A stretch of 64,000 nt of DNA from Candidatus Nomurabacteria bacterium (GTDB lineage: Bacteria; Patescibacteriota; Minisyncoccia; Phycocordibacterales; CALRBL01). The stretch spans positions 139,524 through 203,523 of the forward strand of contig CAWIDS010000001.1 of the NCBI GenBank assembly GCA_963834935.1, written 5' to 3'. Shown here one piece after another: positions 45,560 to 48,500 of this stretch (the stretch's first letter is position 1; every line of letters begins with the position of its first letter). Under the pieces are notes generated by a model. It did no database searches. It was not told the DNA's origin and worked only from the letters and a program-made list of their open reading frames with translations. The position numbers and the translations under genes were made by a program.

Positions 45560-48500
45560 TAGAAGTCGACGGATTAGTACACCTCGGCTTAATCCATTGC
45601 TGGACTTCCACCTAGTGCCTATCAACCTAGTCATCTCCTAGGGGTCTATGATTTCTTATCTTGAAGCTGGCTTCACGCTTAGATGCTTTCAGCGTTTATC
45701 CATTCCCGACTTAGCTACTCTGCGGTGCCCTTGGCAGGACAGCAGACACACCAGAGGTCAGTTCATTCCGGTCCTCTCGTACTAGGAACAAATCTTCTCA
45801 AAAATCAACGCCTGCAGTAGATAGGAGACCAACCTGTCTCACGCATATTCATCACATATTACTATGTGTATTGGACTGTAATTTCTTCCTTGCGGAAGGT
45901 TGACGTTCAGTCTCTACGGGCGAGGATTACTCTTCCCTCGGTGTTGGCCATCCTCGAAAAGGATTGGGCTTTCACCGATATAAGTCAACTGCTTTCTCAT
46001 ACATCTCTGCATGAGACCGCCGTGAATATATTTGATTGGTTCTCTTACAATTTTTCAATACCGAAAAGAAATATAACAGTTAAAATATTTTTATGTCCTC
46101 TGTGGATTCAGAGTGTTCAATCGTAGATCTTGCGATCCTTAACTGAACGGTCTGAACCCAGCTCGCGTAACTTTTTAATTGGCGAACAGCCAAACCCTTG
46201 GGACCTTCTCCAGCCCCAGGATAAGTTGAGCCGACATCGAGGTGCCGAACTGTGCCGTCGATTTGGACTCTTAGGCACAACCAGCCTGTTATCCCCAGAG
46301 TAGCTTTTGTCTGATAATCTTCCACCGCATCTAATGCGAATGGTCGGTTCACTATGTTCTGCTTTCGCATCTGCTTGACATATACGTCTCACAGTTAAGC
46401 CAGCTTGTGCCATTACACTATCGGCACGGTTTCCATTCGCGCCTAGCTGACCTTAATAAACTCCTCCGTTACTTTTTAGGAGGATAGCGCCCCACTAAAA
46501 CTGCCCGCCAGATACTGTTTCTCATCGTTTTTGCCGTTGAGGTTAGAAAATATATTTATACAGATGGCTATTTCACTGACGACTCCATGCCAACCGAGAT
46601 CGGCACTTCAAAGTCTCACCACTATGCTACGCAGCAAAAACATATCCTCAATACCAAGTTGCAGTAAAGCTTCTGGGGTCTTTTCGTCTAACTGCAGGTA
46701 AGCGGCATCTTCACCGCTATTGCATTTTCACCGAGCAGGTCCCCGAGACAGTTCTCCAGTCATTACACCATTCGTGCGCGTCTGAACTTACCAGACAAGG
46801 AATTTCGCTACCTTAGGACCGTTATAGTTACGGCCGACATTCACCAGGGCTTACAACAGTCAGCTTGCACAGAATAAATTCTGTATCGCACCGCCATCGT
46901 TTGACCTTCTGGCATTGGTCAGGTGTCACCCCCTATACATCCTCTTACGAGTTCGCAGGGAGCTGTGTTTTTGGTAAACAGTTGCCAGAGATACTTTAGC
47001 TGCGGCCCCCTATCATTGCTGAAAAGGGGCAAGCCTTATTCCGAAGTTACGGCTGCTTTTTTGCCGAGTTCCTTGGGGACTTCTCACTCGTTCGTCTTGG
47101 TCTACTCGACCTGATCACCTGTGTCGGTTTGCGGTACGGTTGCCATATACATAAGTTTAGAGACTTTTCTTGGAAGCGTGCTTTGCGAAATTTGTCCGTC
47201 TTTCGGCGGACATTTATGCTTTACTCGAATTACCATTGAAGGAAGACTTACGGATTTTCCTGTAAATCATTCTGATAACACAAACGCAAATCCGATGATG
47301 CGCATCGCATACTACCCTCCGTCATCCCGTCACTATATATAGCAGTCATGGAATATTAACCATGTGTCCATCGGGTTCGGCTTTCGCCATCCCCTTAGGC
47401 CCGACTAACCCTTGGCTGATTGTCATAGCCAAGGAAACCTTAATCTTTCGACGTGCGGGGATTTCACCCGCATTGTGGTTACTTGTGCCAACATTCTTAC
47501 TTCCAAGCGCTCCAGCATGGGTCACCCCTTTGCCTTCATCGCGAATGGAACACTCTCCTACCGCTCCCAATTTCCGAAGAAATTGAAAGCCCTCAGCTTC
47601 GGTACTACGTTTAACCCCGATCATTTGCGGCGCGAAATCTCTGGATGAGTGAGCTGTTACGCTATCTTTAAAGGATGGCTGCTTCTAAGCCAACCTCCTC
47701 ATTGTCAGAGAAATTTCACCACCTTAAGCGTACTTAACGTAGATTTTGGGACCTTAACTTGAGATCTAGGGCTGTTTCCCTTTTGACCAGTGGAGCTTAG
47801 CCCCCACGGTCTAACTGCATAGCTTTAGCTCTGAGTATTCGGAGTTTGATAGGTCTCGCGAGATTTCTCCCTGTCGAGACCTTCCAGTGCTCTACCCCTC
47901 AGAGGAACACTATACGCTAGCCCAAAAGCTATTTCGGAGAGAACCAGCTATTACCAAGTTCGATTAGCTTTTCACTTCTTACCACAAGTCATCCGAATGT
48001 GTTGAACGGCATAACGGTTCGGGCCTCCATTCGTCTTTCGACGAACTTCACCCTGCTCATGGCAAGCTCACTTGGCTTCGGGTCTCTAGTGTACGACGAA
48101 CGCACTATTAATACTCGGTTTCCCTATGGCTTCATCCCTCGGATTTAGCCGGGCCGCATACTAGAACTCGTTGGCTCATTCTTCAATAGGCACGCAGTCG
48201 AGGACGCAAGCGCCCTCTTCTACTCCTTGTAAACATATGGTTTCAGTTCTATTTCACTCCCCTCTCCGGGGTTCTTTTCACCTTTCCCTCGCGGTACTAG
48301 TTCACTATCGATCTTAAAATGTATTTAGCCTTAGCGGTTAGTTCCGCTGGATTCCCCCGAGCCATTCGTGTCTCGAGGTACTCAAGAATAGCAATGAGAG
48401 ATATATTGTTTTCGATTAAAGGGCTATCACCTGCTTGGGCTAAGCTTTCCAGCTTATTCTTTTAACAATATATTTTGTAACTCTCTGTAATAAATTACGT

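Follow-up and report, generated by a model that had tools for sequence, protein, structure and literature searches.

A probable self-splicing group I intron without an endonuclease gene in the 23S rRNA gene of a Candidatus Nomurabacteria bacterium

Introduction

What is the extra RNA that interrupts the 23S ribosomal RNA (rRNA) gene of a Candidatus Nomurabacteria bacterium, and does it leave the transcript? We address this question for a stretch of 64,000 nucleotides (nt) of contig CAWIDS010000001.1, referred to throughout as the window, in which the sole 23S gene is a full-length bacterial large-subunit (LSU) rRNA at 45555..48853 on the minus strand. Its Rfam span of 3299 nt, against a model of 2925 positions, agrees with the ~3.3 kb of the original prediction, which had been made from the sequence and had pointed to an A/T-rich insert of ~303 nt, possibly a group I intron, at the I-CreI site equivalent to E. 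coli position 2593. The remainder of the gene is intact. On comparative grounds, we consider it highly probable that the insert is a self-splicing group I intron without an open reading frame (ORF), located after U2593, which has lost its endonuclease gene.

Group I introns at this site (L2593) are already known to be common in bacteria of the Candidate Phyla Radiation (CPR), and that of the window is ordinary save for the two-part grip on the upstream exon that is tentatively proposed below. According to Tsurumaki et al. 2024 (J Bacteriol, PMC11270868), 82% of CPR 23S genes contain insertions, and 2593 (their site 23IS12) is among the recurrent sites with LAGLIDADG_1 group I intron-like insertions; Rfam classed 45% of the CPR 23S insertions as group I, while 55% were unclassified. 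L2593 introns in cyanobacteria (Synechococcus, Thermosynechococcus) had been reported earlier (Haugen et al. 2007, PMC1995217).

Results

The insert and its boundaries

Scanning 45700..46330 with the LSU covariance model (cmscan) locates 307 nt in the helix 93 segment where the model has 4, between GaaCGUC and GACAG. The net insert is exactly 303 nt, 46146..45844 on the minus strand, and its last base is G. Read directly, exon 1 ends in GGGUUCAGACCGU at 46147 and exon 2 starts with CGUGAGACAG at 45843, and these boundaries are fixed, as any shift would alter conserved rRNA sequence. The LSU alignment places the insertion point after the equivalent of E. coli U2593 in helix 93 (the E. coli numbering is our own, anchored on A2602 in GACAG), which bears out the site proposed earlier; the upstream-exon U and insert-final G of that proposal are likewise both present. 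Two neighbouring base pairs of the helix 93 stem, at the peptidyl-transferase centre, are thereby separated from each other.

The insert is indeed A/T-rich: its GC content is 39%, and 29.5% over the first 122 nt, compared with 46.7% in the 23S gene. Its fold has a z-score of -5.6 relative to shuffles, and the minimum free energy (MFE) fold has hairpins in the order expected for P2, P3, P4-P6, P8 and P9. This z-score, and the many homologues that share the site, exclude chance sequence. No homing-endonuclease ORF was found in it by ORF listing or Pfam: the longest sense-strand ORF contained within the insert has 32 aa, and two longer ones, of 96 and 98 aa, begin in exon 1 and extend into it. 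The 86-aa ORF at 45866..46126 is on the plus strand, antisense to the gene, and has no Pfam match, consistent with how it had been dismissed originally.

The elements of the intron and its flanks, to which the following sections refer, are:

46147..46159 (-), 3' end of exon 1, GGGUUCAGACCGU (E. coli ~2581-2593), from the LSU alignment, the sequence and pair counts; it ends with CCGU, the exon side of P1, before which GGGUUCAGA(C) provides the exon side of an auxiliary helix, Px
After U46147 (-), 5' splice site
45844..46146 (-), the whole proposed group I intron, 303 nt, without a homing-endonuclease gene
46117..46146 (-), distal extension hairpin of P1, in which intron nt 1-6, UCAGUU, pair with GAUUGA, with the cap GGAUC-GCAA-GAUCU
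46104..46116 (-), linker AAC(A) and auxiliary exon-binding element a', CUCUGAAUCC (family consensus GUCUGAAUCC), from covariation with the exon; the element itself is 46113..46104
46025..46103 (-), A/T-rich variable peripheral region within the enlarged P1 loop, from the alignment
46017..46024 (-), internal guide CACG-GCGG, CACGGCGG
45996..46015 (-), P2 hairpin, with compensatory changes in 7/7 pairs
45899..45989 (-), P3 domain, with P3 formed by 45989..45984 and 45904..45899
45977..45973 with 45943..45939 (-), P4, inside P3
45969..45947 (-), P5-P5a, inside P3
45937..45918 (-), P6-P6a, inside P3
45914..45908 (-), P7 5' strand and bulged A, inside P3
Within 45899..45989 (-), R element, GUAGAGACUGAACG
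45885..45898 (-), P8 hairpin CUUCC-GCAA-GGAAG, directly adjoining P3'
45873..45878 (-), P7 3' strand CAGUCC, 100% paired, which with 45914..45908 makes up the guanosine-binding helix
45853..45868 (-), P9 hairpin with a GUAA tetraloop, 4/6 pairs compensatory
45844 (-), terminal G of the intron (omega-G), from the sequence, directly before the 3' splice site
45840..45843 (-), nt 1-4 of exon 2, CGUG, forming the exon side of P10

A covarying group I core

To examine the fold in evolutionary terms, we aligned the window insert with 28 ORF-less homologues from the same site (alignment A1, n=29) and scored its pairing against a group I structure drawn by hand. Across P2-P9, 94% of cells are paired, whereas slid controls reach 30-41%, and compensatory changes occur in 40/69 pairs, a level attained by 0/500 shuffles. 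Covariation is heavy in P2, P3, P5, P6a, P8 and P9, with P4 and P7 nearly invariant. The closing pair of P7 is A-U in 19 sequences and G-C in 10, with no exception, while G45914-C45873, the bulged A45913 and G45912-C45874 are invariant in all 29; this arrangement presumably resembles the C262-G312, A263 and G264-C311 site of Tetrahymena. The internal AGAGACUGAACG, suggested earlier to be the R element, proves to be just that, supplying the 5' strand of P7 and P3'. The window retains every position that is invariant in the family.

Two analyses from which the window was left out support this assignment. RNAalifold on the relatives returned P10, P2, P3, P4, P5, P6/P6a, P8 and P9. A covariance model of the P3-P9 core (R1, 149 positions), built from the 28 relatives, matches the window once and at full length, at 45851..45991 on the minus strand, with 132.3 bits (E 1.4e-32), which is close to the best of the family (60-139 bits). 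Family covariation and this purpose-built model thus uphold the ORF-less group I intron of the original prediction. The group I features found in the insert are a U.G wobble at the 5' splice site formed with a guide, a terminal G, P10, a core with the P3/P7 pseudoknot and P4-P6, and a guanosine-binding G-C pair beside a bulge.

R1 also matches 2-4 separate places in many single 23S genes (L006, L081, L068, L044, L087, L066 and others), and therefore several related group I introns occupy different sites of one 23S gene in CPR and other metagenome-assembled genomes (MAGs).

The guide, P1 and P10

The 8-nt segment CACGGCGG is the same in all 29 sequences at 7/8 positions, and its first position is C in at least 90%. 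It is located 122 nt into the window intron. Its GCGG pairs with the exon 1 CCGU to form P1, with G46020 opposite the splice-site U46147 as a U.G wobble, and its CACG (46024..46021) is complementary to the exon 2 CGUG (45843..45840), forming P10. In a wider set of ~90 L2593 introns, the fourth P1 pair covaries between C-G and A-U with the exon: ~75 introns combine an exon ending in ACCGU with the guide GCGG, and in 16/16 an exon ending in AACGU goes with GCGU. The guide always precedes the J3/4-P4 anchor by ~38 nt, and in relatives whose P1 is compact this guide recurs at 4-36 nt from the splice site. Near-invariance, exon tracking, constant anchor distance and presence in compact-P1 relatives together identify CACG-GCGG, as read from these comparisons, as a real internal guide in the standard P10-P1 arrangement.

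With these parts in place, splicing is very probable and would follow the usual group I route. The transcribed guide would pair with the end of exon 1, and exogenous guanosine bound in P7 would attack the phosphate after U46147. The terminal G would then replace the guanosine in the pocket of P7, and exon 1, once freed, would attack after G45844, restoring the helix 93 sequence GACCGU-CGUGAGAC and releasing the intron.

Homologues at the same site

In an uninterrupted gene the base before CGUGAGACAG is U, and a group I intron ends in G; we therefore scanned one genome per species for G plus exon 2, GCGTGAGACAGKTYGGTC. At least 120 other genomes carry an insert at the L2593 site, with lengths of 213-1034 nt, and 77 of these inserts match that of the window at nhmmer E<0.02. 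ORF-less copies with the same architecture are numerous among them. The loci are mostly from Patescibacteria/CPR MAGs labelled Saccharibacteria, Parcubacteria/Paceibacterota, Nomurabacteria, Kaiserbacteria and others (the labels being those of the deposited MAGs), with some from Acidimicrobiaceae, Omnitrophota, Chloroflexota and other phyla. Among the loci listed, the best match to the window insert is in a Ca. Nomurabacteria MAG (L117, E 3e-30), and the same MAG has the closest 23S: once spliced in silico, the window's 23S is 92% identical to it over 1649 nt. The host is therefore a CPR bacterium.

Many of the MAGs with L2593 introns are labelled 'uncultured Candidatus Saccharibacteria' (L002, L005, L006, L008, L012, L015, L018, L020, L028 and others). 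Saccharibacteria 23S genes have been described as an exception without insertions, in Tsurumaki et al. 2024 (PMC11270868); either the labels are loose or the exception fails in larger data. L2593 introns also occur in soil MAGs of Acidimicrobiaceae/Actinomycetota (L017, L025, L027, L034, L036, L043, L066, L095, L099, L104), which share the J3/4-P4 sequence GGCUCAUAUCGGUGAAACCC. These have a compact P1 and a guide fitted to their own exon (GCGUCC with GAACGU), and come in a ~378-nt ORF-less form and a ~738-nt form bearing LAGLIDADG.

Loss of the endonuclease gene

Relatives of ~700 nt carry ORFs of 150-190 aa with a LAGLIDADG_1 domain in Pfam (L049, L057, L102, L052, L027), whose best matches among solved structures are I-MsoI and I-CreI. 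The ORF-bearing relatives thus encode enzymes of the I-CreI family, in keeping with the I-CreI-type site that had been proposed. Their matches to the window are interrupted between its P5 and P7 regions, and their ORFs begin at intron nt 128-195, which suggests P6 as the place of the endonuclease gene. P6a of the window is just a 3-bp hairpin with a 5-nt loop, and so this copy has cleanly lost the gene. We suggest that the intron formerly spread through an I-CreI-type LAGLIDADG enzyme whose gene lay in the P6 loop, as in the longer relatives, and that the window copy may now be immobile and inherited along with the 23S gene.

A second exon-binding element and a long 5' hairpin

A stretch of ~90 nt, starting with AAC(A)-CUCUGAAUCC (46116..46104), separates the P1 extension hairpin (46146..46117) from the guide. 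The extension hairpin is defined by the MFE fold, by RNAalifold and by alignment columns 13-16, which covary with columns 127-130. CUCUGAAUCC pairs with the exon sequence GGGUUCAGA(C), the 9-10 exon bases directly upstream of P1, forming the helix Px. In 65 introns of the window type, a G/A polymorphism of the exon strand is matched by the intron without a single mismatch (G:C 39, A:U 20, G:U 6), and a C/U polymorphism is matched as C:G in 59 and U:A in 4. RNAalifold draws one long hairpin of exon and intron sequence spanning the splice site, with 22 pairs, 13 of them covarying, and a conserved 2x2 internal loop at the two C's of CCGU. Some compact relatives ('type B'; L075, L052, L060) have GAACCC in the P1 loop, complementary to the exon GGGUUC.

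The remaining 79 A/T-rich nt, 46025..46103, are much shorter or absent in some relatives, and RNAalifold on the 5' domain found no consensus fold for them. We rejected the idea that they are a remnant of the endonuclease gene, as this gene appears in P6 in the ORF-bearing relatives. The motif UUUUCG(U) at 46086..46092 recurs in the variable region of L117, L110, L098, L101, L093, L019 and L056, where no pairing partner or role was found for it.

We think that the Px element is an auxiliary exon anchor and possibly a folding switch; its pairing is evident from the covariation, and it may work as follows. CUCUGAAUCC would anchor the 5' exon, which is otherwise gripped by ~4 bp alone; the guide would then invade the long hairpin at its internal loop, giving rise to the catalytic P1. 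The outcome would be a pseudoknot in which a single exon strand is gripped by two distinct intron segments. Extended to the family, the idea is that most CPR L2593 introns, that of the window included, recognise the 5' exon in two parts, namely a 4-bp P1 formed by a guide ~60-300 nt into the intron, and a P1-loop element that binds the preceding 9-10 bases, either together as a pseudoknot or as successive states of a switch with the guide invading at the CC loop. We put this forward as a tentative proposal, for which the odds seem slightly unfavourable. No description of such split exon recognition was found in the literature searched, the coverage of which was incomplete.

Discussion

Several points weigh against an intron that splices itself. 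The Rfam check suggested with the original prediction was negative: Intron_gpI (RF00028) gave no match at E<=10 on the 3.4-kb gene or on a 351-nt region around the insert, group II introns gave none at E<=10 on the gene or the insert region, and the whole window yielded no group I or group II match. A match to RF00028 at the gathering score of 50 bits is thus the group I feature that was not found, and the relative L049 reaches only 35.9 bits (E 2.7e-7). The pattern used to find relatives demands a G before exon 2, and hence no independent evidence comes from their terminal G, and the G of the window is the one that counts. As P1 and P10 are invariant at most positions, covariation could test one P1 pair alone. 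The partner of the splice-site U in the long 5' hairpin is A (48/65) and not G, and this hairpin would need remodelling before catalysis. Lastly, we infer splicing from sequence and comparison, and group I introns that are unspliced or depend on proteins do exist; one unspliced in Simkania 23S rRNA is known to us from a reference title in PMC11270868.

Two of these points can be accounted for. The RF00028 miss is a sensitivity limit of one model rather than evidence against an intron, because the covariation in the family is strong and the structural features are the defining ones. Relying on Rfam alone would wrongly have indicated an expansion segment, whereas family covariation and R1 show an intron. 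As for the long hairpin, it is not the catalytic P1, since its splice-site U pairs with A. Forming P1 requires the opening of just two pairs adjacent to the splice site, at +4.6 kcal/mol versus ~-3.6 for the 4-bp P1, and by these modelled energies the strand exchange from hairpin to P1 would be about neutral. The partner of the second C in CCGU is mostly a non-pairing A (44/65), which fits selection for a weak point.

The most serious rival is that the intron no longer splices by itself, being either a decaying relic or dependent on a protein acting in trans (a maturase-type LAGLIDADG or a host factor), in the worst case leaving the 23S gene defective. The ORF for an endonuclease or maturase is gone, the 5' splice site is buried in a hairpin of -27 kcal/mol, and the 79-nt A/T-rich peripheral region is without a conserved fold, all of which would suit such an explanation. 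We nevertheless regard it as unlikely: the window keeps all family-invariant positions and scores 132 bits against a model made from other members, with a family maximum of 139; the gene is the only 23S in the window and is otherwise intact; and ORF-less copies of the same architecture are numerous. Still less probable is an unspliced expansion segment that stays in the mature 23S as an extra domain off helix 93. Near the tip of the helix 93 hairpin extra RNA is sometimes tolerated, and this reading can also appeal to the absent Rfam intron match and to the Simkania title (PMC11270868), but an expansion segment would need neither an intact covarying catalytic core, nor a guide matching both exons, nor a terminal G. 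Its relatives, moreover, carry homing endonucleases, the mark of mobile introns; the insert splits adjacent base pairs at the peptidyl-transferase centre; and CPR rRNA insertions are stated to be removed from transcripts, citing earlier work, in PMC11270868.

The original prediction had also noted that the R element is an exact 8-nt complement (ACUGAACG with CGUUCAGU) of sequence at the upstream junction, and had wondered about a guide-like or long-range role. The complement does exist in the window, where AGAGACUGAACG could pair with CGU|UCAGU across the 5' junction, and, as both segments are conserved, most homologues keep complementarity at 6/8 positions (73.7% paired; slid controls, 10-41%). 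A role for it is nonetheless very improbable, as covariation among the 29 homologues is not above shuffles (87/500 as good) and, of the two positions that vary, one is unpaired in 19/29 and the other in 25/29. P7 and P3, which do covary, already make use of these R nucleotides: the R nucleotide at the variable position of the complement covaries perfectly with P7' (AU 19, GC 10), and the junction nucleotides covary with their 5' hairpin partner instead.

Three further candidates were rejected. An intervening sequence (IVS) excised by RNase III is at odds with an insert in the helix 93 stem that has a covarying multi-helix core, and not a simple stem-loop at an IVS site; the known RNase III-cleaved IVS sites are 23IS2 and 23IS4, not 2593, according to Tsurumaki et al. 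2024 (PMC11270868). A group II intron would start with GUGYG instead of UCAGU and usually exceeds 600 nt, compared with 303 nt here, and no Rfam group II match was obtained at E<=10. An IA-type L2593 intron, as in cyanobacteria and chloroplasts, would have a P7.1/P7.2 extension, which is absent: P3' ends at 45899 and P8 starts at 45898.

Relation to known introns

The self-splicing ORF-less intron that we favour shares its insertion site and host lineage with the 23IS12 introns of CPR, and the single-domain LAGLIDADG_1 ORFs of the latter are found in its longer relatives (PMC11270868). The window copy differs in having no ORF (LAGLIDADG_1 being frequent there, not obligatory) and in being missed by the Rfam model used in that study, so that it would fall in the unclassified 55%; the accessible text has no description of a distant guide or a second exon-binding element. 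Compact-P1 L2593 introns (L050, L100, L111, L016; type B L075, L052, L060) have the same core sequences, GACUCAUAUCGGUGAA and so on, and their guide, likewise GGCGG, precedes the P4 anchor by ~38 nt; with this guide at the usual distance from the splice site, they lack the ~90 extra nt that the window has between P1 extension hairpin and guide.

Chloroplast and cyanobacterial L2593 introns (Cr.LSU with I-CreI; Synechococcus, Thermosynechococcus) have the same site and target sequence, and we take the I-CreI gene to be placed in P6 of Cr.LSU. In the cyanobacterial introns, P2 is short and P7.1/P7.2 form an extension of ~65 nt (PMC1995217), whereas the window has nothing between P3' and P8 and carries its extra RNA in the P1 loop.

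The proposed two-part grip also recalls group II introns. There, two separate parts of the intron bind neighbouring stretches of the 5' exon (EBS1/EBS2 with IBS1/IBS2, the exon-binding and intron-binding sequences). This likeness is an analogy only, as ribozyme class, chemistry and structure are entirely different.

Other features of the window

The 23S gene has a second small expansion at 48513..48578, ~38 extra nt at LSU model positions ~271-300 that form a near-perfect hairpin and draw spurious microRNA-family matches on both strands; it looks like a short helix extension or an IVS-like element, not an intron. The 5S gene (45356..45464) follows the 23S, and the 16S gene (34073..35669) is ~10 kb away, so that the rRNA genes are unlinked. 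The order on the minus strand is 23S-5S, then ~9.7 kb of protein-coding ORFs (including a RodA/FtsW homologue and a VWA-domain protein), then 16S, with tRNA-Ile(GAT) at 33264..33337 past the 16S. Besides this normal tRNA-Ile, ARAGORN calls a tRNA-Ile with anticodon TAT (UAU) at 23501..23577. The anticodon UAU is uncommon in tRNA-Ile among bacteria, and this gene may bear on the reading of AUA codons in the lineage.

Implications

The overall picture of rRNA introns in CPR bacteria is unchanged by this analysis. For annotation, the gene should be recorded as a 2996-nt 23S rRNA interrupted by one intron, and neither as a 3.3-kb rRNA nor as a pseudogene. More generally, an insertion in a CPR rRNA gene that Rfam misses can still be a complete group I intron, and the family alignment together with the R1 model could reclassify many of the 55% of CPR 23S insertions left unclassified (PMC11270868).

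The covarying second element offers a concrete and testable case of a group I intron with a 4-bp P1 keeping hold of its 5' exon. If two-part recognition is real and functional, it would be an undescribed means by which a group I ribozyme secures an exon that it binds weakly, or sets the timing of splicing against the folding of the peptidyl-transferase centre, and it would also explain why standard models miss CPR L2593 introns. The second element may also bear on how splicing is coupled to the folding of the strand from which the peptidyl-transferase ring is later made.

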